Virus record (IMG/VR): IMGVR_UViG_3300044806_000023
Span: 1-45,913 of that record
Direction: 5' to 3' (one strand)
Length of the DNA: 45,913 nt
Source of the DNA: a virus
Taxonomy: Duplodnaviria; Caudoviricetes
Both the position numbers and the translations under genes were made by a program. Each line of letters opens with the position of its first letter. Position 1 is the stretch's first letter. Positions 5,692 to 18,622 of this stretch are shown here, piece by piece. The notes under the pieces are model-generated. The model had not been told where the DNA came from. It was given only the letters and a program-made list of their open reading frames with translations, and searched no databases.

Positions 5692-8544
5692 ATGTCTAAC
5701 TTCGACCTTCTCGACACCATACTGCCAACCCAAGGCCGGTATTGTGTGCTCGGGCTTGGACGGTACCCAGACCAAAAGTTTTTCGATACGAGAGAAGAAG
5801 TAGAGGCACAGGCTCAGACGTTGGTGGACAACAAGTTTGATGTGTATTTCGGATGCGCCAAATACGGCCCACTGAACAAGCGCACAGCAGACAACGCCAC
5901 GTACTTCCGCGCACTGTGGATGGATATTGACTGCGGCCCAACAAAGGGTGTGCCTAACGACAAGGGCATCATTCAAGGGTACCTCACGCAGCAAATCGGC
6001 TTGGATGAACTGAAGAAGTTCTGCATCGCCGCAGGTATGCCCCGCCCAATTATGGTCAGCTCAGGTTATGGCGTTCACGCCTACTGGTTGATTGAAGAAA
6101 CAGTTGAGCGCCGCGACTGGCTCCCCCTCGCAAACCGTCTACGTGAACTGTGCGTCGAGCATGGTCTCATTGTGGATTCTTCCGTATTCGAAGCAGCACG
6201 GGTACTGCGCATCCCCGGCACATTTAACTTCAAGCAAGCCGAACCGATGGAAGTCACGGTGCTCAATGAGCGCACACAGACCCTGACGTACGACCAATGG
6301 AAAGAGCTGCTCGGCGCTGCCGACCCAGTTGACGACAAGCCTGATTTCTTACCGTCCATCAGCCCAATGATGGAAGCCTTGATGGGTAACAAGGTGAAGC
6401 GGTTCAAGAACATCATGATGAAGGCAGAGAACGGCTGTGCTCAGCTGAACTACTGCTACCAAAACCAAGACACTATCGAGGAACCCCTGTGGCGCTCCGC
6501 TCTGTCAATCACTGCGTTCTGCGTGGACAAAGACAAAGCATCCCACATGATGTCCAGTCAGTATCCAGCCTACAACCCTTCCGAGGTAGATAAGAAGGTA
6601 GCCGAGTTGGTAGCTAACGGTGGCCCTCACCACTGCCTGACTTTTGAGAAGATCAACCCGACTGGCTGCGCAGGATGCCCACACAAGGGCAAGATCAAAT
6701 CCCCAATCGTGCTCGGCATGGAGATTGCCCAAGCTGAAGTCGAAGACGGTGAATACGTAGTCGAACAGCAACCGACAGAGGAAGAAGGAGAAGCCACAAG
6801 CTACCGTATTCCTGAGTATCCGTTTCCTTTCTTCCGTGGCAAAGAAGGCGGCATCTGGCGCAAGGGTGAGACCGACGAAGACGAATCCGTGCTGGTGTAC
6901 GAGCATGACCTGTACGTGGTCAAGCGGATGAAAGACCCTGAGATGGGTGAAGTAGCCCTGTTCCGACTGCACTTGCCCCATGACGGCGTGAAAGAGTTTT
7001 CGGTTCCCGCTACGGCAATTTCCGCGAAGGATGAGCTACGCAAACAACTGTCGCACCACGGTGTGATGGCAACACAAAAACAACATGAGCTGCTGGCGAT
7101 CTTCGTCGTGGCTTTCATGAAGAACTTACAGTATGTGAGGAAGGCAGAAGTTATGAGAACACAATTTGGTTGGGTGGACAATGACAGCAAGTTCATTGTC
7201 GGCGACCGCGAGATTACAAAGGACGGGGTGTTTTACAGCCCACCGTCAGCCATTACCCGTTCGTTTGCCGAGAAGATGGTGCCGACTGGTACGTTCGAGA
7301 AGTGGAAAGAGGTGTTCAATATGTACGCCCGTCCCGGCCTTGAGCCCCATGCGTTTGCCGCACTCACAGCCTTCGGTTCGCCCCTGTTGAAGTTCACGGG
7401 CTTGAGTGGCGCAATCATCAACGTCATCCACAAGTCGTCAGGCTCAGGCAAGTCGACAGCGTTGTTTATGTGCAACAGTGTGTGGGGCCACCCCAAAGAG
7501 TTGTCGTCTATGTGGAAGGACACGCTCAATGCCAAGATGATGCGTCTCGGTGTGCACAACAACCTGCCCAACACGATCGACGAGATTACGAACACCAGCC
7601 CAATGGAGTTCTCTGACTTGGCTTACAGCATCTCTCAAGGCCGAGGCAAAGACCGCGCTAAGTCGCAAACCAACGAGCTCCGTGCCAACCACACCAAGTG
7701 GAACAACATGACCTTGGCATCGTCCAACGCCAGCTTCTACGAGAAACTTGGCGCGGCAAAGAACTCACCCGACGGCGAATCCATGCGTCTGCTTGAGTAC
7801 AAGATTGAGCCGACAACCATCATCAGCGTGGAAGAAGGCAAGCAGATGTTCGACCATCAGATGCTTGAGAACTACGGCCATGCCGGTGACATTTACGCTC
7901 AGTGGTTGGTCAACAACTTGGAAGAGGCCACCAACTTAGTTCGCAGCATCCAAGCTCGTATCGACAAGGAAGTGAAATTCACAGCACGGGAACGCTTCTG
8001 GTCAGCCGCCGCCGCGATCAACATTGCTGGTGGTTTGATTGCCCAAGACCTTGGCTTGCACGACTACGACATGAAGGCTATCTACAAGTGGCTGCTCGGT
8101 ATGCTTGCCAATATGCGCGAAGAAGTAACACCCCCTGCATCGGACCCAACCATCATGCTCGGCGACTTCATGAACTCCCACGTACAAAATATGCTGGTGG
8201 TGAATGGTGCGATCGACGCACGGACAAAGATGGGTGCTATGCCGACAGCCGAGCCACGGGGCGAGTTGCTTCTGCGCTTTGAGCCTGACACGGGCGACCT
8301 ATTCATTGCGGCCAAAGCGTTCAAAGACTACTGCGTGAAGTACCAAATCCACTACCGCGATGCACTCAAGCAGCTCAAGGATGACGGTGTGTTCCTCGAC
8401 ACGATCAACAAGCGTATGTCGAAGGGCATGAAAATGGATTCCCCAGCCGTACGCGCATTGCACTTCAACACCAAGAGCTTTGATAACCTCGTGCCACTGG
8501 ACGCGCTGACAAATGAAGATCGAGATGGTAACGTATCGGATTGA
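5692..8544 (+). CDS. Primase-helicase: RepB/AEP-like primase fused to a DUF927-type P-loop helicase
   Basis: LWMDID, SSGYGVHAYW, RVLRIPGT primase motifs; Cys-rich middle; FGW; SSGSGKST Walker A; TIDE Walker B. Confidence 0.9.
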   Translation: MSNFDLLDTILPTQGRYCVLGLGRYPDQKFFDTREEVEAQAQTLVDNKFDVYFGCAKYGPLNKRTADNATYFRALWMDIDCGPTKGVPNDKGIIQGYLTQQIGLDELKKFCIAAGMPRPIMVSSGYGVHAYWLIEETVERRDWLPLANRLRELCVEHGLIVDSSVFEAARVLRIPGTFNFKQAEPMEVTVLNERTQTLTYDQWKELLGAADPVDDKPDFLPSISPMMEALMGNKVKRFKNIMMKAENGCAQLNYCYQNQDTIEEPLWRSALSITAFCVDKDKASHMMSSQYPAYNPSEVDKKVAELVANGGPHHCLTFEKINPTGCAGCPHKGKIKSPIVLGMEIAQAEVEDGEYVVEQQPTEEEGEATSYRIPEYPFPFFRGKEGGIWRKGETDEDESVLVYEHDLYVVKRMKDPEMGEVALFRLHLPHDGVKEFSVPATAISAKDELRKQLSHHGVMATQKQHELLAIFVVAFMKNLQYVRKAEVMRTQFGWVDNDSKFIVGDREITKDGVFYSPPSAITRSFAEKMVPTGTFEKWKEVFNMYARPGLEPHAFAALTAFGSPLLKFTGLSGAIINVIHKSSGSGKSTALFMCNSVWGHPKELSSMWKDTLNAKMMRLGVHNNLPNTIDEITNTSPMEFSDLAYSISQGRGKDRAKSQTNELRANHTKWNNMTLASSNASFYEKLGAAKNSPDGESMRLLEYKIEPTTIISVEEGKQMFDHQMLENYGHAGDIYAQWLVNNLEEATNLVRSIQARIDKEVKFTARERFWSAAAAINIAGGLIAQDLGLHDYDMKAIYKWLLGMLANMREEVTPPASDPTIMLGDFMNSHVQNMLVVNGAIDARTKMGAMPTAEPRGELLLRFEPDTGDLFIAAKAFKDYCVKYQIHYRDALKQLKDDGVFLDTINKRMSKGMKMDSPAVRALHFNTKSFDNLVPLDALTNEDRDGNVSD

Positions 8545-8744: not shown

Positions 8745-8770
8745 AGCCCCGCCTAGTGCGGGGCTTTTTT
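8745..8770 (+). terminator. Rho-independent terminator at the convergence of replication and virion modules
   Basis: AGCCCCGC-CTAGT-GCGGGGCT followed by a T-run. Confidence 0.85.
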
Positions 8771-11700
8771 CATTCCTGCTTCATGCGCTTGTCCAGCTCT
8801 CTGCGTGTGTTGACCGCAGCTTCCGTAAACATAGGCGCATTTTTCTTGGTTAGTTCAAGCCCTCGGTACGACTCGGCACGTTTCTTGTCGCGCTCTTTTG
8901 CGGACTCCGACATGTCTCTAGTCAGTATCTTGTACTTGGCGTAACGTGCGTTGAAGTCAACGATGTCATCAAACGCTTTGTCATAATCATCCCAATTCTT
9001 ATGCTGTCTAGCAATATCGAGACGGTCTAAGAGGTCAAAGCGTTTTTCGATGACGCCCTTTTCTATGTTCATCAGCTCGAAATTGTCTCGGCGAATTTGG
9101 CCAATCACCCGAGGACGGAAGCCGAGCACCTGACCTGCGTGTTCATTCAACCTGATTTCCTCTGGGCTAGCAATCTCGACACCGCGAGAATCTTTTTCCC
9201 CTTGCGTCGCCATCAGATAGGTTAGGTACGGGCCGCGCATGATAGCGGGGAGCATCTTCTTCATGCCTTCTTCCACTTCGCCGCGCCACCATTTGCGTGC
9301 ACCTTCGACCATATTGACCATTACGCTGATACCCGGGGGTGTCAAGGATTGGCTCCAGTCCATAATCTGCTTGACCACGTCCAAGCTGGCGCGGTAAGTC
9401 AAATCCCAGCCGGTGTAGCCAAGCAAGCCGTGGTTAACGAACCCACCCAAACCATCGCCGAGATGCTCAGGAATCCATACCGTGCGGTACCACATCTCAA
9501 AGTTCATGGCCTTCATGTCTTCTGGCCAGTCGTCATCCTTGAGGTATTCAAACACAAGACCAAGCGCGCCTGTGATTACGGTGTACAGCGGAGTAGCAGG
9601 TTGGCCAAGCGCCAAAGCAGTGGTTGCCCAAAGCCCCATAAACTTAGTAGTCGCGGCAATCCGCTCTTCGCGGCTGTCGGCCTTAATCATGCGCTTCAAG
9701 TTGACGGCTTCAAACAGCAAAGTGTTGACCATGAACGACTTCAAGTTGAACGCCAAACGCCCAAGCTCACCCTGCATATAGCGGGGACGGTTGCTTACAG
9801 CGAAGTCACCTAAAGCTTCTTTGGTATCGGCAATCGCGATACGGATCGCTTCGTCTGGGCTCTTGCCTTCTTTGATGCTGAGGTTGTAAGACGCAGTGAA
9901 CACGATCTCGCGAGTCAGCTTAGACATGTAGTGGCTGAATCCGAGGGTAGCCACGCTAGCACCACGAGCCAACTTCTGCGCGGTCTTCTTAACCATGCCA
10001 GCGTTTACGTCCGTAGCCTTAGCACCGATGTACCCTAGGGACTCGACTTCAGTCATCTGCGTAACGCCCGAGCGCATCAACTCGCCGATGGCATAGCGCA
10101 TCTCTTTGGTCAGTGTGGGGTCGTCCAACATAGTCGGCACGCCCTCTGCGTTTTTGTGCAGGCGTTTCTCAGTGATTCGGTTGGCGATAGCGGTAGCCTT
10201 GGCCAACTCTTTAGCGGCACCCTTGCCGGGGTGGTTCGCAGTCAACACCGCCAAACCGCGTGTGGGTACGTTAATCAAGTCCATCAACGCAGTAGCGGGG
10301 CCGGACAGCAGCCACACATAGGAAACTTCGTTGATTCCAGTAACCACAGACTCAAATGCGCCTTGGTGGTCGTTGGACAACATCAGGTTGACGCGCTTCT
10401 CAGCTTCATCCACATACGGCAGTAGCTCGTACCCTTTTGGCTGGAACTTGAGTGAACGCTTAGCGTCGTCCAAAGACTTGCGCATAGCTGGGGTGTACTT
10501 CAAACGAGCGAGCTGCAATGCCTGCTTCGTAGCTGTGTGGGCAATGTTCTTGGTAATGTCGGTCGAGAAGCCGGGGATGTCCTCACGCTCCATGAACTGC
10601 TTCCTGAAACTCTGCTCAGGCATGGCCGACAAGTACGCTTGGAACACCACGTTCTTCAGTACTTCATTTGGGTTAGACGCAGGTTCTTTGCCGTCGGCGG
10701 GCTTAGCCGTAGGCTGCTTATCAATTGCGTTGAACATTGCGGTCAGCATGGCGTTGCCCTTACTGCCTTCGTTGCGGAAGTTCAGTTGGGTGCCGACTGC
10801 AAAGGTTTCCTCACCAATCAGAGTGTCGAGGTCAGAGCCAAACTCCTCAGCCATTTTTGCAGCGAACTCATCGCGCTCAGCCTCAGATTCAAACGTGTAC
10901 AGCTCGCGGTCTTCGCCTGTACCTACGCGCACCCAGAAGTTGCCAAGGCGCACCAGTGGGAAGTAGGGAGAGATGCGTTTGCTGGTCTCGTACTCTTTGC
11001 GCAGTAGTATGGCGAGATTCTTCTTCTCTGTTGGGTCGATGCCCAAGCCCTCGATTGTTTCCAAGAGCAGGTCGTTGTAGTAGTCCGAGATGTCGCGGTA
11101 GTAGTCACGCAGCGCAACATAGATTTTCTGGCCTTCTTCGCCCAACTCGGCGAACTGTGCATCCATGTCAGCCTGACGGCGCTTACGCTTTGTGTCCGCT
11201 GGGTCGTAACGCATGACCGTTGCCATGTAAATCACACGGGACAACAGCTCTTTTTTCTCTGGGTTCTTAGTGAGGTAGTCATCCACCCGCTTCTGCATCA
11301 AGCCAGCCGCACGCAAGAAGTCCGCAGCCATGCCGCTCATCTTGCCAGTAAGCTCGTACGTAGTAGTCAGGGCAGGGATGCTGTTCTTAACACTGTTGGC
11401 CAAGTACATGAAGTCCGGGCCAAAGGCCATAGCCTTCTTGAAATAGTACTTAGCCGACATTGCCTTGCGAAGGAACGAAACACCCTTGAGCAAAGCAGCT
11501 GGAGTGTTAGACCGATTCACAATGAACTGGGCACGGCTGTACTCTTCGTCCAGTTTCTGCGCCTCTTCAGCTTCTTTCTGCTCGGCTTCGGTCGTTACTC
11601 CTGCGGCGGCAGGTTTTTGTTTTTGTCCTTTTTGCGTTGCTTGGACGGCTTGAGTGGTTTCAGTGCCAACTTGTGCTCCTTGTTGCGCGGGTTGAGATTT

Positions 11701-14016
11701 CTGAATGTCTATGATCTTGTTGCCGATGTGCGTGTTCGACATCCCGTCTGGGGTGTACAGCTTCTCGACTGGGTGCAGGCCAACCTCTGGGGTTGTGAGT
11801 GCTGGGTACAAACCAACAGCCGTACCCTTCTTTCTGTTGAACACACCTACAAAAGCCTGAGCACCTTCTGGGATGTCAGTCACGTTCTCAACTGGGTAAA
11901 ACGTGTTGTTGTCGATGTAACCCAGACGCACGGAGTTAGCGCCCATGCCGCCTTGCATGTCGCTCAGAATATTTGTGTGGTCGCCCGGCTGGACGTACAT
12001 CGCCATGTGGGGTTCGTAAGTGGTTCCCTGTCCACGACCCTCAGAGTTCTTCGTGCGCGAAGTTTTGCCGTCTTCACCGACAACGTAGACACTGCCCTTG
12101 GCGGTAGTGAAAGTCAGTGCAGCGGGCTGAGCTCCTGCTCCTTCTGTAGCGCTTCCAACATCCTCTCCAGCAGGTACCACTCCATCGGCAGCAGGTTCTC
12201 CAAATCCTTCGGCGGCGGGGACTTGATCGGGCTGTCCAGCCAGCTCAGCGCTGACTCCACCTGTTTCGTCGATAGGCTGTCCAACATTTGTAGCTCCTTC
12301 TGCACTGGTGGCAGGTTGTGCTGTGGGTGTCTGAGTGGGCGCAAGTCCTTCTTCCTTTGCAACGTCAATGGCAGCTTGAGCCTTCGCTTCTTTGGGGGTC
12401 AAGCCGAGGTCAACATATACCTGTGTCAGCTCTTCAACTTTCGCAGCTGTCTCTTCGTCCAGACGGCGCTGGGCCAGCAACTGGGCGTTCTTCAGAGGGA
12501 TGCCACGCTCAATCGCAATCTGCTCGGCCAAGTCGTCGAGGGCTTTAGAAGTAGGCGCGGGTTGTTCGGTTGGCTCTGCGGCAGGGGCTGGCTGCTCTTC
12601 CTGCTTTGGTACAGCTTGCGTCAACTCTTGCGCGTTTTTCAGCGGGCTCAATACATCCGCAGGTACTTGCGTATCCGCAGTCTCGCCACGAACTGATTTC
12701 ACAGCTTTGTTAACCGCAGCACCGCCGCCATACATCATGCCCGCTTGGGTAACTGTGGCAAGGGCAGTGTCCATCGCACCATCAATGAACTGCTTGATAC
12801 CTGCTTCTTTGTTCAGGCCGTGGGCTTTGTCAACGGCAAACTGACCCGCATAGGTCAACTCTTCGCCGGGAATTTCTCTGGCCAACGCCTTGGCGTAGTA
12901 CGCCGACAAGTCGGAAAGGGGGATGCCACGCGCCGACATCTTGAGCGCCTTCATGCTTGGGCCGAGACCCAATCTCTCACCCACGAGTTCAAACGATGCG
13001 TTCGCAGCGGAACGTGCAAGGCTTTCATCCGCAGACATACCCAGTCGGCGGCTCTCGTCGTAGTTTTGGCCGAAGGACTGTGTGAACATGCTGGCCAGCA
13101 CCAAAGGCTCGGACCCAGTGAGCAAGCCACCAATCATTGCTGGAGCTTGCTGGATGATTGACGCCGCAGCGCCTTCGATAACTTGGACCGGCTTGGACTT
13201 AGACTCGCCCATGTTTTTCAACAAGAAGTCCAGATTGTCTAGCTTTGTCTTTGTGTCCGTGTCTTCCACACCAGCAAAGTCGGCGATAGCTTGTTTCACG
13301 CCATAGTAGCCCTGTTGCCCAGCAGCAACGCCTTTTGCGCTCAGACGTTTGAGTACGCGCCCTGTTTCGTCGATGCCGTGCAGCTTTGGGTCTATACCGT
13401 ATTCTTCTTGAATACGCGCCACGTCTTCGGGGGTCTCAGTCATTTGCGCGTAGCGCGGAGCTTCGTACCCTCTCCTTGCTTCGTCTTCGGCTTCTGAGGT
13501 AGCCCCTTCTAAGTTACGACCCTGTGCAATCTTGCGCTCAATCCTAGCTTCTAGGCGGGGGTCGAGACGTTTGGTAACGGGAGACTCGGCTGTCTTATCC
13601 AGCTCCCCATGCTGTTGGGTGTAGGCGTCGGCGACCTGAGCATAAATGCCGCCCTTGGCGCGGAGGTTACCAACAGCAAGCCCACGTTCTGCGCGGGGCA
13701 AAGAGTCGAGATGCGCGTTAACCCCCCGAACAAACTTGGGGTCTACGCCTCGGCTAATAGGAGAAGGCGCAGGAACTGGCATCTGTTTGCCTTCGAGCAC
13801 GCTTGATTTTTTAGGCGTAGCCACGCCCATGATTTCAGACGCGCCAGTGTCCATGCCGCCAGAAACTTCAGGCGTATCCTCAGTTGTAGCCGGTGCTGGC
13901 GTAGTTTCCGTAGGTGCCGACTGCTTACCGAGGTAGTTCAGAATCTTGGTTTTTGCCTCAGCATGGTCCTCGGTAGCAATGTCGTACTGCTGCCCTTGAT
14001 ATTCATAAATCGGCAT
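8770..14016 (-). CDS. Giant internal virion/ejection protein (1748 aa, large polyvalent-like)
   Basis: Last and largest gene of the virion block; helical regions separated by acidic low-complexity linkers; hydrophobic segments near the C terminus. Confidence 0.8.
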   Translation of the reverse strand: MPIYEYQGQQYDIATEDHAEAKTKILNYLGKQSAPTETTPAPATTEDTPEVSGGMDTGASEIMGVATPKKSSVLEGKQMPVPAPSPISRGVDPKFVRGVNAHLDSLPRAERGLAVGNLRAKGGIYAQVADAYTQQHGELDKTAESPVTKRLDPRLEARIERKIAQGRNLEGATSEAEDEARRGYEAPRYAQMTETPEDVARIQEEYGIDPKLHGIDETGRVLKRLSAKGVAAGQQGYYGVKQAIADFAGVEDTDTKTKLDNLDFLLKNMGESKSKPVQVIEGAAASIIQQAPAMIGGLLTGSEPLVLASMFTQSFGQNYDESRRLGMSADESLARSAANASFELVGERLGLGPSMKALKMSARGIPLSDLSAYYAKALAREIPGEELTYAGQFAVDKAHGLNKEAGIKQFIDGAMDTALATVTQAGMMYGGGAAVNKAVKSVRGETADTQVPADVLSPLKNAQELTQAVPKQEEQPAPAAEPTEQPAPTSKALDDLAEQIAIERGIPLKNAQLLAQRRLDEETAAKVEELTQVYVDLGLTPKEAKAQAAIDVAKEEGLAPTQTPTAQPATSAEGATNVGQPIDETGGVSAELAGQPDQVPAAEGFGEPAADGVVPAGEDVGSATEGAGAQPAALTFTTAKGSVYVVGEDGKTSRTKNSEGRGQGTTYEPHMAMYVQPGDHTNILSDMQGGMGANSVRLGYIDNNTFYPVENVTDIPEGAQAFVGVFNRKKGTAVGLYPALTTPEVGLHPVEKLYTPDGMSNTHIGNKIIDIQKSQPAQQGAQVGTETTQAVQATQKGQKQKPAAAGVTTEAEQKEAEEAQKLDEEYSRAQFIVNRSNTPAALLKGVSFLRKAMSAKYYFKKAMAFGPDFMYLANSVKNSIPALTTTYELTGKMSGMAADFLRAAGLMQKRVDDYLTKNPEKKELLSRVIYMATVMRYDPADTKRKRRQADMDAQFAELGEEGQKIYVALRDYYRDISDYYNDLLLETIEGLGIDPTEKKNLAILLRKEYETSKRISPYFPLVRLGNFWVRVGTGEDRELYTFESEAERDEFAAKMAEEFGSDLDTLIGEETFAVGTQLNFRNEGSKGNAMLTAMFNAIDKQPTAKPADGKEPASNPNEVLKNVVFQAYLSAMPEQSFRKQFMEREDIPGFSTDITKNIAHTATKQALQLARLKYTPAMRKSLDDAKRSLKFQPKGYELLPYVDEAEKRVNLMLSNDHQGAFESVVTGINEVSYVWLLSGPATALMDLINVPTRGLAVLTANHPGKGAAKELAKATAIANRITEKRLHKNAEGVPTMLDDPTLTKEMRYAIGELMRSGVTQMTEVESLGYIGAKATDVNAGMVKKTAQKLARGASVATLGFSHYMSKLTREIVFTASYNLSIKEGKSPDEAIRIAIADTKEALGDFAVSNRPRYMQGELGRLAFNLKSFMVNTLLFEAVNLKRMIKADSREERIAATTKFMGLWATTALALGQPATPLYTVITGALGLVFEYLKDDDWPEDMKAMNFEMWYRTVWIPEHLGDGLGGFVNHGLLGYTGWDLTYRASLDVVKQIMDWSQSLTPPGISVMVNMVEGARKWWRGEVEEGMKKMLPAIMRGPYLTYLMATQGEKDSRGVEIASPEEIRLNEHAGQVLGFRPRVIGQIRRDNFELMNIEKGVIEKRFDLLDRLDIARQHKNWDDYDKAFDDIVDFNARYAKYKILTRDMSESAKERDKKRAESYRGLELTKKNAPMFTEAAVNTRRELDKRMKQE
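11595..11669 (-). CDS. Putative overprinted 24-aa basic peptide (MALKPLKPSKQRKKDKNKNLPPQE)
   Basis: AAGGAG (11681-11676), 6-nt spacer, TTG start, TAA stop; +1 frame inside the 1748-aa gene. Confidence 0.4.
   Translation of the reverse strand: MALKPLKPSKQRKKDKNKNLPPQE
12114..12287 (-). CDS. Putative overprinted 57-aa helical protein (MLDSLSTKQVESALSWLD...QELSPLH)
   Basis: GAAGGAG (12300-12294), 6-nt spacer, ATG; +1 frame inside the 1748-aa gene; amphipathic protein-like sequence. Confidence 0.65.
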   Translation of the reverse strand: MLDSLSTKQVESALSWLDSPIKSPPPKDLENLLPMEWYLLERMLEALQKEQELSPLH

Positions 14017-14024
14017 ACCGAGCC

Positions 14025-16094
14025 TCAGTCAAGTTTGATCGGGGAAATAATACCACCCTTGGCTTTAAGCGGAATAGCGCCGTCATCTTGTGGGAGAGGC
14101 TGACTCATAACGCGTGTCTTTACCTCGGCTTCCATAGCTCGTTGGCGTTCTGGAGTGGCACGTACGTATTCCTTGTTGACCTTCAAGTCACCCAAAGCCT
14201 CTTCGTACATCTTGATGCGCTTGATCTCATTGCCTTGATTAGACACATCAAGTTTGCCGGGGCCAGCGTCTTTCGTTGCCCCCACAGCGCGGCGGAGTGC
14301 CGTGACAGTTTTAAGCGTCTGGGCGGTTGGGTTAGTCTCGTGCGCGATTTCAGCAGCGCCGAGCTGCTCGGCGAGTTTGACTTGTTTTGCACCGCCAGCA
14401 CCGCCAGTAGGCTTAGCGATTTTCGCGCCTTGAGCGGCCAAATTACCGAGGGCTTTCTGCTTATCCAAGGCGAATTTGTTCGCGTCAGAAATAGACCGGC
14501 GAGCATCATCTGCGGCACCGATAGAGTCCTTAGTCATGCCCATGCGTTCTTTGCGTTGCGCATCCTTGATGGCGAACTTAGCGTTGTTGAGTGAACGACG
14601 CTCCAAAGCCTCTGCCCTCGCAGCTTGGACAAACCCTTCACCAACTTCCGCACCAGCACCAGCAATACCGCGCATTGCGTTGTTGCCTTCCAATGCTGCT
14701 TTAGAACCCCGGAAAAACGCCGAAGCCCTAGCTAGGTTGCCGATACCGGAGACACCTTTTTCTTGCTCGCCCAACTCCGACAAACTATCGGCGTATGGGT
14801 CTGGACCCGCCATCTTGCTAAGCATTGCGTTTCGGTTGAAGATAGCCTTGTTGTAATCTTGCTCCGACATAGTGACTGGCTTCTGGTTGCGGATAGCCTC
14901 CATACTGCGCAGGATTTCTTGGTTGAAACCGCTGAAAGCGCGAGGGTCACCGGGGGAAGAAACCATCTGACCATACATAGGGTCGTTTTCTTCTTCGTCG
15001 CCAGCAAAAGCCAAGATGCCACCGCCCGCCATGCGTTGTGCCATGTCAGGAGTAATAGTGCCCGCCAAACCATTTTTCATAGAAGCGCGGAACGCAGCTT
15101 CTGATTGCGCGGCTTCAAACTCGGCGCGGGTTGTTGGGTGTTGCAAAACCTGTTGGAGTTGCTCATCACTCAGTTTGCTTACGTCCGCAGACATAGCCTG
15201 CTCGTCGTGCATAGGTGAACGAGAAATCGAGCCGCCATCGGCATAGCCGTGAATCACACCGCCGTCGGCTTTGGCCAACGAAGCAATACCAGCCGCGCCA
15301 AGACCCAAACTAGTCATGTTTTGAAGCGACGAAGGAGGAGCTTGGTACACCTGATTGCTCGACTGCATACCCAGCGGAGTGCCTCGGATGAGGTCAGACA
15401 TATAGCTAAGTTGCTTGTATGGCTGGTTCTGCTGGTTGATGAACTCTTGGTACGGCACGTCCAACTCTTTTTGGCGCTGTGCTTGTTGCTGGCCACCCAG
15501 CGTAGACATTTGTTGCAGGCCAGTGTTGTATTGTTGGGTAGCACCAGTAAATGCGTCTTGCAGACCTTTAGCCTGAATACCTTGCAAAGCAGAGTTACGG
15601 GCGCGCTCATTCTCCATGCGCATCACTGCGTCACGGCCACCACCAAAGGCGTTAGCTTGAGTAGCACCTGCACGTTGCTGCATACCTGTAATGTCGTACT
15701 GACGGTTGGCAGACATCATCTGCTGGTCAACCACGTTCTGCATATACGGAGACATGTACTGGCCGACAGTAGCGCCATAGCCTTGTGGCCCCGCGCTGGC
15801 AAACGATTGCTTTTGCAGATTGCTGAAATCCGCAGTGCGCTCACCGCCGTAAGTTTGGTATGGGTTTTGGCTAATGTCTGTCAGTGCTTGGCCTTTGGCC
15901 AATACGTCTTTAGCGTAACCACGCGCCCATTCTGGGAGTTCTTGTGTCTGTTGCGTAGTTGTATTCGCAGGCTGGCCACCGCCGCCACCACCGCCGCCGT
16001 CACCAAGGACTAAGCCGCCATCAGCCTTGCGGTAGGTAGCAGAGTCACCAATGGGTTCGCCCAAGGCGTAAAGTTCTCGACGTGAATAGCTCAT
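14025..16094 (-). CDS. Internal virion/ejection (pilot-like) protein
   Basis: GGGGGG-TTTQ..LPEW, QYMSPY, AFGGGR motifs; Gln/Ala-rich coiled coil; ATGA overlap with the upstream gene. Confidence 0.75.
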   Translation of the reverse strand: MSYSRRELYALGEPIGDSATYRKADGGLVLGDGGGGGGGGQPANTTTQQTQELPEWARGYAKDVLAKGQALTDISQNPYQTYGGERTADFSNLQKQSFASAGPQGYGATVGQYMSPYMQNVVDQQMMSANRQYDITGMQQRAGATQANAFGGGRDAVMRMENERARNSALQGIQAKGLQDAFTGATQQYNTGLQQMSTLGGQQQAQRQKELDVPYQEFINQQNQPYKQLSYMSDLIRGTPLGMQSSNQVYQAPPSSLQNMTSLGLGAAGIASLAKADGGVIHGYADGGSISRSPMHDEQAMSADVSKLSDEQLQQVLQHPTTRAEFEAAQSEAAFRASMKNGLAGTITPDMAQRMAGGGILAFAGDEEENDPMYGQMVSSPGDPRAFSGFNQEILRSMEAIRNQKPVTMSEQDYNKAIFNRNAMLSKMAGPDPYADSLSELGEQEKGVSGIGNLARASAFFRGSKAALEGNNAMRGIAGAGAEVGEGFVQAARAEALERRSLNNAKFAIKDAQRKERMGMTKDSIGAADDARRSISDANKFALDKQKALGNLAAQGAKIAKPTGGAGGAKQVKLAEQLGAAEIAHETNPTAQTLKTVTALRRAVGATKDAGPGKLDVSNQGNEIKRIKMYEEALGDLKVNKEYVRATPERQRAMEAEVKTRVMSQPLPQDDGAIPLKAKGGIISPIKLD

Positions 16095-16498
16095 AGTGTG
16101 ACCCTCATTACTTGGTGGGTGTTTTCCATACCCATTTTCTTGTACATATCGACCAGCGTGCCGCGTGCCCAGCACTGGGCTTTTGTTGCGCCCATACGGC
16201 GCATGAATTCTTTTGCTTCGTCAAACACGTAGTCCCTGACGATGCCTTTACCGCCCATCAGGTTTACATGCGCGATACGCTCCAGTGGGTAGTCAATGAT
16301 CTCGATCGTGCAAGCGCCGGTAATACCTTCGCCGGGTTCTTCCCAAACCAACAAGTGCGTCTGCCCCTTGCGGATGCTGTACTCGATGAACTGCTCGTTA
16401 TGAGAGCCGGGTTCAAGGTCCATTGCCTTCTTCAGCAGTGGGAGCGCAACAGGCCACACGGTCGGCATGTGGCTAGGATGAACATGATGCAATGACAT
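16091..16498 (-). CDS. GNAT-fold-like protein between ejection genes
   Basis: IIDYP...AHVNLMGG...MGATKAQCWAR...LVDMYKKMG pattern; position like T7 gp13/P22 gp14. Confidence 0.55.
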   Translation of the reverse strand: MSLHHVHPSHMPTVWPVALPLLKKAMDLEPGSHNEQFIEYSIRKGQTHLLVWEEPGEGITGACTIEIIDYPLERIAHVNLMGGKGIVRDYVFDEAKEFMRRMGATKAQCWARGTLVDMYKKMGMENTHQVMRVTL

Positions 16499-16500
16499 TT

Positions 16501-18267
16501 TTAGGCTGGGAGGAATTTGTCGGCGCGGGTGTTCTTAGCGACTTTCCCTTTACCGACGGTTTTACCACGGGCTTTCTGGACTCGGTCCATCATTGCGTAT
16601 AGTTTACGCGCACCAGCCTCAGTTGAGCCATTGCCAATCTCAGAAACAATACGTGCGGGCACAACAAATTCGCCGTCGGCGAGTCGGGCAGGCTGCTTAC
16701 GGCCAATCACAGCAGGGATAGAGTCAGAGACACCATCGCCGGGGCCACGAAGCAGTCGGCCACCATCAGAGTAACCGCCGAGGGTAGAACCGCCATTTGC
16801 GTAAGCCTGCATCAAGCCCCCATTTGCTGCCCCGCCGCCACCATCGTAGCCAGTGATAACGTCCGAAACAACTGATGGCAGTGCGTCAAGGATTTTTTGG
16901 CTCTCAGCGTCCAAACCATACTCCCCACCACCTTTGTAAATGTTGCCAGCACTAGGGCCGGAGCCGACGTAGCTTTGTGTAGATGGGTCATAGCGCATAC
17001 CATTTGCCGGGGCTGTAACAGTAGAAGCCATACGTGCGGGGGCCGCAGCAGAAATACCTCGGCCAGCGTTAGGAGCTGAGTCGTAGCCTGAGTAGTTACC
17101 AACATCTGGGCCACCGTAGCCTGAAAAATCAGCGCCTGAGAATGGGCCAGCTTCATAACCAACCGAAGGAGCTGCGGCAGTAGGGGCACCAGAAGCACCG
17201 CCAGTAGCCATGCGGACTACGGGCTCGTTATAGGGATACTGCACATCGCCGCCGTCGGCGAAACCGTAGAGCTTCTTGGCCTCTTCGTTGCTAACTGCCT
17301 TGTACGCAGGTTGGCCTGTACGCTCAGGAACAGAGTTGTCATAACCGGACTCAAACGCATAGCGTTGGCCCATGTCGGCATCGCCTTTAACTTCCGGTGG
17401 GGTATAAGGTTTTGGTGTCAGTTCATCAGCAATGGCTGGAGCTGCGGCCATACCGGCGAGCTTAGCTGTCTGCATACCGCCGCCGAGTTTATCGACGTAT
17501 GCACCGGGGTTTTTGTATGCTGCTTCCAGCCCAGACTGCATTGGGTTTTGAGCGAGTGTTTGTTGCGTTGAAGCTGAGAACCCTGTATTGGAAGGGATCA
17601 TGACATCGGTTGTAGCGCCGGGCAATTGCGGACCCATAGCTTCAGAACCAAATGCTGGGGTATAACCCCCGTTCAACTCGTATGTATTGCCAGCGGCGTT
17701 TGAAGCGTAGTCACGGGCGGATTGTTCCCATACCGCTTGGTTACCCACGGCGTTACGTGCGGCTTGTTCGCCAGCAACTTGCTCGATTGCTTGTGGGGTT
17801 ACGGCCTCTTGCCCTGCGGTTTGCAGTGCTGTTTGTTTTGCGGCTTCAGTTTCTGCCGCCGCTGCCGCCGCTGCCTCGGCTTCTCCTGCCGCTGCCGCTG
17901 TTCCTGCTTCAGCACCCATTGCACCAAGACCACCAGCCAAGCCAGCGCCACCGTATGCGCCGAGACCCGCCATCAAACCTTGTTTCAAACTACCTGTAGC
18001 GGCAAACATACCACCACCAACCATCGCAGCGGCCATAGGAGCGCCAACACCAGATGCAACCAAAGCAGCACCAGCAGCCATAGGTAGGAGAGACTTCAAG
18101 CTAAATGCTTCGGGCAACCCAGTGTGAGGGTTGATAGTCAAAGAAGTACCTTGCTTTTTAGCGAGTGCTTGAAGACCAGCAACTTCCCCTTTTGTCATGT
18201 GGACAAGTGTGGTGTCGCCGTTACGGCCTTTAGAAGCGAGGTGTTGTGCAGCGTGATGTAGGCTCAT
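16501..18267 (-). CDS. Internal virion/ejection protein
   Basis: N-terminal GRNGDTTLVHM..INPHTGLPEAF; Gly/Ala hydrophobic stretch; C-terminal GPGDGVSDSIPA..LADGEFVVP; GAGG SD before ATG 18267. Confidence 0.75.
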   Translation of the reverse strand: MSLHHAAQHLASKGRNGDTTLVHMTKGEVAGLQALAKKQGTSLTINPHTGLPEAFSLKSLLPMAAGAALVASGVGAPMAAAMVGGGMFAATGSLKQGLMAGLGAYGGAGLAGGLGAMGAEAGTAAAAGEAEAAAAAAAETEAAKQTALQTAGQEAVTPQAIEQVAGEQAARNAVGNQAVWEQSARDYASNAAGNTYELNGGYTPAFGSEAMGPQLPGATTDVMIPSNTGFSASTQQTLAQNPMQSGLEAAYKNPGAYVDKLGGGMQTAKLAGMAAAPAIADELTPKPYTPPEVKGDADMGQRYAFESGYDNSVPERTGQPAYKAVSNEEAKKLYGFADGGDVQYPYNEPVVRMATGGASGAPTAAAPSVGYEAGPFSGADFSGYGGPDVGNYSGYDSAPNAGRGISAAAPARMASTVTAPANGMRYDPSTQSYVGSGPSAGNIYKGGGEYGLDAESQKILDALPSVVSDVITGYDGGGGAANGGLMQAYANGGSTLGGYSDGGRLLRGPGDGVSDSIPAVIGRKQPARLADGEFVVPARIVSEIGNGSTEAGARKLYAMMDRVQKARGKTVGKGKVAKNTRADKFLPA

Positions 18268-18295
18268 GTTTGCCTCATAAATGGGGTTGTGGGTA

Positions 18296-18622
18296 TTATG
18301 CCTTGATGCGAAGCGGATAGCTAGTAGCGGGGCCACCAGATGTATCACAATACACATCGCCGGAACGGAGGTTTGCAAAGTCCACCTGAGTAGGCAGACT
18401 AATGATCGTGTTGCTTGGGTTTGCAGGGTCAGGCTGACTTAAAGACAGCGCTGTGACCACATTGGCCGCGCCGATATTTTGAGAGCCCGCGCTCATGGGG
18501 CCTTGGTTGACTAGCTGGTTGAAGAACAGACGTAGCACGTTGTTCAATTGGTCCATGTAGCGGCGGTCCGGCACCTCTGGGGAAAGAGGTAAGTTCGGTG
18601 CCTTTACGTTTACCTGTGCCAT
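18296..18622 (-). CDS. Small tail-associated protein
   Basis: APNLPL..YMDQLNNVLRLFFNQL; TAATG overlap with the nozzle gene. Confidence 0.7.
   Translation of the reverse strand: MAQVNVKAPNLPLSPEVPDRRYMDQLNNVLRLFFNQLVNQGPMSAGSQNIGAANVVTALSLSQPDPANPSNTIISLPTQVDFANLRSGDVYCDTSGGPATSYPLRIKA

Follow-up and report, generated by a model that had tools for sequence, protein, structure and literature searches.

A complete gene of 57 codons, here called gene A, lies inside the gene for a 1748-amino-acid virion protein in the tailed-phage record IMGVR_UViG_3300044806_000023 (Duplodnaviria; Caudoviricetes), the whole 45,913 nucleotides of which we refer to as the window, and comparison with relatives makes it almost certain that it is a real gene under purifying selection that annotation misses. 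It occupies the minus strand, from an ATG at 12287 to a TGA ending at 12114, in the +1 frame relative to the open reading frame (ORF) 14016–8770, and overlaps host codons 577–635. An earlier reading of this DNA from its letters alone (the sequence-only reading) had proposed the nested gene, with GAAGGAG, six nucleotides and an ATG, together with its 57-residue translation; these details were found as described, the strand being added here, and the comparative evidence bears out the gene itself. The features concerned are as follows.

12114..12287, minus strand: nested gene A, 57 amino acids, acidic (isoelectric point 4.5), two main helices and a proline loop, conserved C-terminal S-x-[LVI]-[HQ]
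12294..12300, minus strand: Shine-Dalgarno site GAAGGAG of gene A, 6 nucleotides upstream of the ATG
8770..14016, minus strand: host giant gene, encoding a 1748-amino-acid polyvalent virion (likely ejection) protein, its C-terminal half DarB-like/PLxRFG-related

Selection, start signals and census of gene A

Constraint on the reading frames was measured in two sets of copies. Among 37 non-redundant 57-codon copies out of 45 found with the peptide, other lengths being excluded, the ratio of nonsynonymous to synonymous substitution rates (dN/dS) was 0.19–0.25 in the nested frame, 1.9–2.3 in the host frame and 1.0–1.3 in the third frame, with an amino-acid identity of 61% in the nested frame compared to 38% in the host frame. 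Because this set had been found with the peptide itself, we also used an anchor-based set, consisting of the best 80 of 587 loci found via an unrelated anchor gene 4 kb upstream, which avoids peptide-based selection. Its 20 non-redundant copies gave dN/dS values of 0.13–0.29 for the nested frame and 1.65–2.49 for the host frame. In eight close pairs from the same set, seven of them informative in the overlap, the ratio of nonsynonymous to synonymous differences per site (pN/pS) within the overlap was 0.25 for the +1 frame and 1.94 for the host frame, and outside it 1.36 and 0.26, respectively; that is, constraint switches from one frame to the other at the overlap. The same flip was detected at gene A in eight of nine carrier pairs, and in none of 11 non-carrier pairs, by a scan that made no use of the peptide. 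Synonymous sites of gene A vary freely (pS 0.35–0.72) while its residues are kept, and insertions and deletions preserve the frame (56–58 codons). The +1 frame is the more constrained one, which is the outcome that the sequence-only reading had expected of a dual-frame check, and the host frame is a passive linker in the overlap, where it is the small gene that shapes the sequence. A second frame-flip window, lacking an obvious start, was seen in one pair (L069/L074; L069 giant codons 612–642).

The window on its own is insufficient as proof of gene A, because its frame would be open by chance in 41% of trials and chance +1 ORFs with Shine-Dalgarno-like sites are common in relatives that lack gene A; the proof comes from comparison between relatives. 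The first figure was obtained by resampling synonymous codons with the host protein fixed (P 0.41), and the same resampling produced start, stop, Shine-Dalgarno site and open frame together in 2.7% of trials. Five of the 72 stop-free +1 runs in the giant gene extend over 57 codons or more. The +1 frame stays open for 37 codons further upstream of the ATG in the window, with TTG alternatives present, and for a median of 17 codons in relatives; conservation begins at the ATG, not in this upstream open stretch. An ATG or GTG with a Shine-Dalgarno site is located 55–62 codons before the stop in 83 of 95 distinct nested copies, compared to 410 of 9321 (4.4%) other +1-frame starts. The remaining copies mostly start at 67–78 codons; L055 has no start at the expected place and L060 has ATA. 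An in-frame stop lies within one codon of the start in six of the 83 copies, and the start region is less structured in 90% of 77 loci. Beside these counts, the ATA of L060 (about position 7965) follows a strong Shine-Dalgarno site, and its relative L061 has ATG there.

Searches with the gene A peptide returned three proteins, then six, then 56 viral loci, L055 among them, in which a frame of 56–58 codons is enclosed by a long ORF and its stop, be it TAA, TAG or TGA, occupies one and the same position. A wider search yielded 102 cluster representatives at E 0.001, at least three of them spurious repeats; alignment A2 leaves out those repeats, eight long or partial rows and P0003. The family thus numbers about 100 clusters at 50% identity. 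The census started from 114 matches, four of which were duplicate rows, and the resulting 110 distinct loci comprised 108 copies nested in the +1 frame of a giant gene, none in the +2 frame and two that were free-standing; metagenomes supplied two further nested copies. Homologues were therefore found, no broken copy was seen and the start signal is conserved, none of which the sequence-only reading had expected of a spurious frame. Two loci showed irregular host frames, namely a TGA 29 codons into the overlap in L009 and a frame shift soon after gene A in L006, for which an assembly error or a broken giant is possible.

Both free-standing copies (L058 and L059) begin with AGGAGG-ATG, have both other frames closed, and are flanked by two ejection genes, ahead of a giant that lacks a nested copy; in their close relatives L060–L062 gene A is nested. 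A model built from 87 nested non-marine peptides matched them at E 8e-16 and 6e-15, and in a quick unrooted peptide tree they clustered with marine nested copies (Shimodaira–Hasegawa-like approximate likelihood ratio test, 93). Escape of gene A from the overlap is the simpler reading of these copies. As to its origin, capture of an older small gene and de novo birth in the giant may equally apply.

No match to two family members was obtained by tblastn among 50,697 annotated phage records, and gene A was found neither in the five whole genomes of cultured relatives (DSL-LC04, MinM2, RW, HTVC023P and CRP-901) nor in one examined region of 023Pt_psg01. The ESM Atlas gave no usable match for two gene A homologues, and the sequencing runs listed as matching the window included no RNA run. 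Three partial pattern matches in prokaryote genomes were dismissed by profile.

The cargo slot and other nested frames

Downstream of gene A, the host frame enters a folded cargo domain, which is followed by a second small frame, gene B.

11683..12111, minus strand: cargo domain, host residues 636–778, a beta-rich mobile module present in 91 polyvalent proteins
11595..11669, minus strand: nested gene B, 24 amino acids, very basic, starting with TTG in the +1 frame, within the linker that follows the cargo
11676..11681, minus strand: Shine-Dalgarno site AAGGAG of gene B, 6 nucleotides before the TTG

The sequence-only reading had described the host frame over gene A as a G/A/E/P linker with a folded cargo domain starting at the TGA, and had suggested that the nested genes are partners (inhibitor, immunity or chaperone) of the injected cargo. 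The linker was indeed seen, and the TGA lies two codons ahead of the domain, which begins at host residue 636 and was modelled as a confident, beta-rich fold with a predicted local distance difference test (pLDDT) value of 94; it had no Pfam, PADLOC or PDB sequence match. The partnership did not hold. A host-frame trace profile of gene A, which detects 46 of 47 held-out carriers and none of 25 non-carriers, placed the trace directly before the cargo in 30 of the 91 giants with this domain and elsewhere in one, and gave none in 60, of which about 39 scored under 5 bits (hand count), many were near-copies, five were cut at the N-terminus and some were borderline. Conversely, the window's cargo was present in one of the 108 host ORFs carrying gene A (a second locus, L009, has it behind the host-frame stop), and gene A precedes unrelated sequences in nearly all 108 loci. 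The co-occurrence and co-variation that tie an immunity gene to its toxin domain were not seen, and gene A and the cargo domain are not a cognate pair. As separate observations, 34 residues of the cargo are identical throughout a set of 34 sequences, and the domain is mobile, turning up in polyvalent proteins alongside LPD38, LPD39 and other domains.

The 24-residue ORF mentioned in the sequence-only reading proved to be a second conserved nested gene. Gene B is kept in 25 loci including the window, always alongside gene A and 12–548 codons downstream of it, and among 24 seeds it starts with TTG in 13, GTG in six and ATG in five. Its pN/pS was 0.23 in the nested frame compared to 1.55 in the host frame, as measured in 22 sequences that were chosen by the nested motif and are hence biased; the peptide-blind scan detected it in one pair. 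Contigs from two sequencing runs link the A and B islands with different sequence between them (85% likeness, so they represent relatives). A and B bracket a variable, swappable cargo slot, and the conserved A and B DNA would offer homology for cargo exchange.

A third +1 frame, unrelated to gene A, encodes 71–74 amino acids at about giant codon 1430–1610, with an ATG, a conserved upstream GAGGG and a TAA. It was found in seven loci, two of them without gene A:

Third-frame copies: L063:12342-12566, L092:9565-9789, L010:9091-9315, L138:7941-8159, L021, L129 and L018

Possible roles of the gene A product

AlphaFold2, supplied with 124 sequences, predicted helices at residues 7–18 and 34–53 (pLDDT 86.7; predicted template modelling score 0.64), in agreement with the helix–proline loop–helix arrangement originally read from the letters. 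Residues L5, E11, A13, P26, L29, L32, W37, L40, L47 and E50 each recur in 95% or more of 92 peptides. The peptides are acidic (median net charge −5) and amphipathic, have no membrane helix, and end in H or Q in all 92 distinct cases, preceded by L, V or I in 91, the free-standing copies included. The window peptide had no match in Pfam, PHROGs, NCBIfam or PADLOC. The best PDB profile match to gene A had an E value of 0.5, Foldseek of the model gave nothing at E 0.001 in PDB or BFVD, and VIA returned generic small helical bundles (best Z 4.9, root-mean-square deviation 3.2, 55 aligned residues) and none at Z 5.

The one family that emerged was PF10109 (tail assembly chaperone), matched by one of 124 members at E 6.6e-5. 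With a profile of 30 tail assembly chaperones, 44 columns aligned in the C-terminal half at a probability of 49.5%, and the score of 23 compared with at most 11 in 40 column shuffles. This part corresponds to PF10109 columns 42–85 of 87, so that a full-length domain with its N-terminal half was not recovered; the fold comparison found no solved gpE relative by sequence and no clear structural match for the gene A model. The apparent likeness to tail assembly chaperones is only a weak lead.

We tentatively regard gene A as a late helper of ejection proteins, a role that we consider possible without calling it probable, and which is narrowly favoured over a host-directed factor. Ribosomes would start internally on the presumably late mRNA of the giant and yield the gene A protein, while the giant would be read through this region as a G/A/E/P linker in a dispensable stretch; the product would act as a small cytoplasmic chaperone-like helper, binding ejection proteins before packaging. 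This role is supported because nested and free-standing copies both stay in the ejection cluster, because 23 of 28 giants with the window's C-terminal module carry gene A compared to six of 26 others (two matches through the overlap alone not being scored as sharing the module), because the protein is acidic and amphipathic without a membrane helix, and because of the 44 columns and the single PF10109 match described above.

Several observations weigh against this role. The best PF10109 score, 23.3 bits, is below the 25-bit cut-off and the window peptide has no match; gene A did not match P2 gpE or Mu gp41 alone, a reverse search with a hidden Markov model for chaperone likeness reached a best E of 1.8, the chaperone comparison was chosen post hoc, and a helix-cap motif, which is unrelated, performs almost as well (36.6% over 18 columns). 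Unrelated small frames occupy other linkers, suggesting a generic slot. Gene A is also dispensable. Among the 54 anchored loci with at least 900 codons of the giant visible, it is intact in 29 and missing from 25, including five giants with the window's C-terminal module; the 25 non-carrier records, six of them at least 90% complete, have no copy elsewhere. On a quick nozzle tree of 51 rows its presence changes 14 times, with at least 11 of these changes forced by strong branches, and gene A therefore travels with the giant gene rather than with core virion genes. No part of the giant is conserved nearly as well as gene A, the window's N-module being detectable in 10 and the C-modules in 61–65 of the 108 carriers, some of them truncated. 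Two more copies were present in partial giants, and no broken copy was seen in the anchored set. In the five module-sharing giants without gene A, the segment has been deleted or replaced.

A host-directed late accessory factor, such as a counter-defence protein or a modulator of a protease or of lysis timing, which would dock a conserved host protein via S-x-[LVI]-[HQ] and use the linker as free coding space, is likewise possible, though somewhat doubtful. It would suit the patchiness among near-identical phages (L070 has gene A, L088 does not), the conservation of gene A while giants diverge beyond recognition, the nearly invariant C-terminus, which the free-standing copies share, and the occupation of such linkers by other, unrelated frames. 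However, no PADLOC, Pfam, PHROGs or NCBIfam match points to a host target, the free-standing copies remained in the ejection cluster, and a promoter scan of the region found four sites compared to 2.7 expected, with no signal above shuffles.

It is rather unlikely that the product is a small internal protein of the virion, itself packaged and then ejected, with the basic peptide B as a DNA-binding companion: the location in the virion and ejection cluster and the restriction of the very basic B to loci with A agree with it, but gene A is dispensable in relatives sharing core virion genes. Far less probable is that the frame forms the C-terminal tail of a shortened giant made by +1 ribosomal frameshifting. 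The upstream open stretch, of 37 codons in the window and a median of 17 in relatives, would permit it, but the conserved Shine-Dalgarno site and start (83 of 95), the in-frame stops within one codon of the start (six of 83), the free-standing copies and the start region, less structured in 90% of 77 loci, all speak against it. A role of the peptide as cognate inhibitor or immunity protein for the cargo that comes next is already largely refuted and carries very little weight; in the window the stop of gene A adjoins the cargo, and the trace directly precedes the cargo in 30 of the 91 cargo giants, but 60 have none, unrelated sequences follow gene A in nearly all 108 loci, and the free-standing copies are two genes away from any cargo. 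Finally, the absence of any second protein, with the signal arising from a conserved element in the RNA or DNA or from constraint on the linker, can practically be discarded, since, easily as an open +1 frame arises in the linker (P 0.41), nested synonymous sites are free while residues are kept, indels keep the frame and free-standing copies exist.

A broader proposal, which we put forward as speculation with the balance clearly against it, is that the giant ejection genes of aquatic podophages are operons in disguise, whose linker slots hold conserved +1 small genes (A, B and the 71–74-residue frame), including a podophage counterpart of the tail assembly chaperones placed on the mRNA of its client, and whose doubly coded islands would serve as homology arms for cargo swaps.

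Known systems and the surrounding genes

The nested arrangement as such is already known. In lambda, too, a small gene, Rz1, lies entirely within a larger one, Rz, in its +1 frame; such genes are often left unannotated, and spanin genes occur in embedded, overlapped and separated forms, according to a spanin survey (PMC6139136). In contrast to spanins, gene A has no lipoprotein cysteine or membrane signal, the window peptide containing no Cys and the family no conserved one (15 of 92 peptides have any), and its host is not a spanin gene but a 5-kb virion-protein gene with an unconstrained frame. Moreover, the gene A family has both embedded and free-standing members, a combination that this survey did not find among spanins. 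Gene E within D of phiX174 and other viral overprinting, as covered by PMC8227390, share with gene A the internal overlap and disorder in one frame that relieves constraint; here, however, the phage is a tailed double-stranded DNA phage and the disordered, relaxed frame is that of the large gene. Like gene A, the PF10109 chaperones (P2 gpE, Mu gp41) are small acidic helical proteins encoded beside a long protein that is, or in the case of gene A probably is, injected, and the C-terminal helix-turn-helix pattern aligns (44 columns, 49.5%), whereas gene A falls below the cut-off, lacks the N-terminal half, occurs in a podophage and is dispensable. Nor does it stand immediately before a tape-measure gene with a −1 frameshift, as is the case in P2.

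The giant proteins of PEp14, POI1126 and Skulduggery are homologous to the C-terminal half of the window's giant. For gp47 of phi24B, which has been found in virions, a role as ejection protein was put forward, and the accessible part of that account (bioRxiv 10.64898/2026.04.10.717836) describes no nested gene. In literature searches that covered mainly freely accessible papers, we found no published description of the gene A family or of genes nested in such linkers. Gene A represents a widespread protein family that is invisible to normal annotation because it lies inside another gene, and an unusually clean overlap, with constraint on the small gene and the large gene giving way. Since nested, free-standing and lost states occur in close relatives, they allow direct study of how overlapping genes arise and escape. 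There is also a warning here: where linkers in giant phage proteins seem to be under positive selection (dN/dS about 2 in this case), a hidden gene can be what produces the signal.

The giant protein itself matches phrog_10089 (E 5.9e-40), and its residues from about 920 to 1740 match 28 records of DarB-like/PLxRFG proteins at 22–25% identity, from cultured podophages, whose conserved C-terminal module it shares. An LPD39 match was below the cut-off, and no methylase or helicase domain was found in the window's giant. From the gene's position and its relatives, we infer that the giant is packaged and injected. The virus record is 73% complete, with terminase, portal, capsid, adaptor and endolysin genes and an ejection cluster that ends in the giant; its best-matching sequencing runs are freshwater metagenomes, three of which may be the source of the record, and, going by the nozzle gene, DSL-LC04, CRP-901 and HTVC023P are among the closest cultured phages. 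Upstream of the giant lies the remainder of the late cluster:

14025..18378, minus strand: upstream late-cluster genes (625, 135 and 716 amino acids), of which the 716-residue gene matches a 'DNA ejection protein' PHROG

It is within this cluster of three genes that the free-standing gene A copies of L058 and L059 are located. Paralogy of gene A with an N-terminal motif of the upstream ejection protein was rejected, the likeness being limited to an 18-column helix-cap match. A terminator-like hairpin (8745–8765, plus strand) lies between the converging giant and primase-helicase genes. Repeated A-x-G-G motifs, presumably of the kind that serve as processing sites in tape-measure proteins, were observed in the proteins encoded at 14025–16175 and 16501–18378 (minus strand). 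The 716-residue gene corresponds to two separate genes in several relatives, and the last 93 residues of the 625-residue protein are 86–96% identical across 80 loci.

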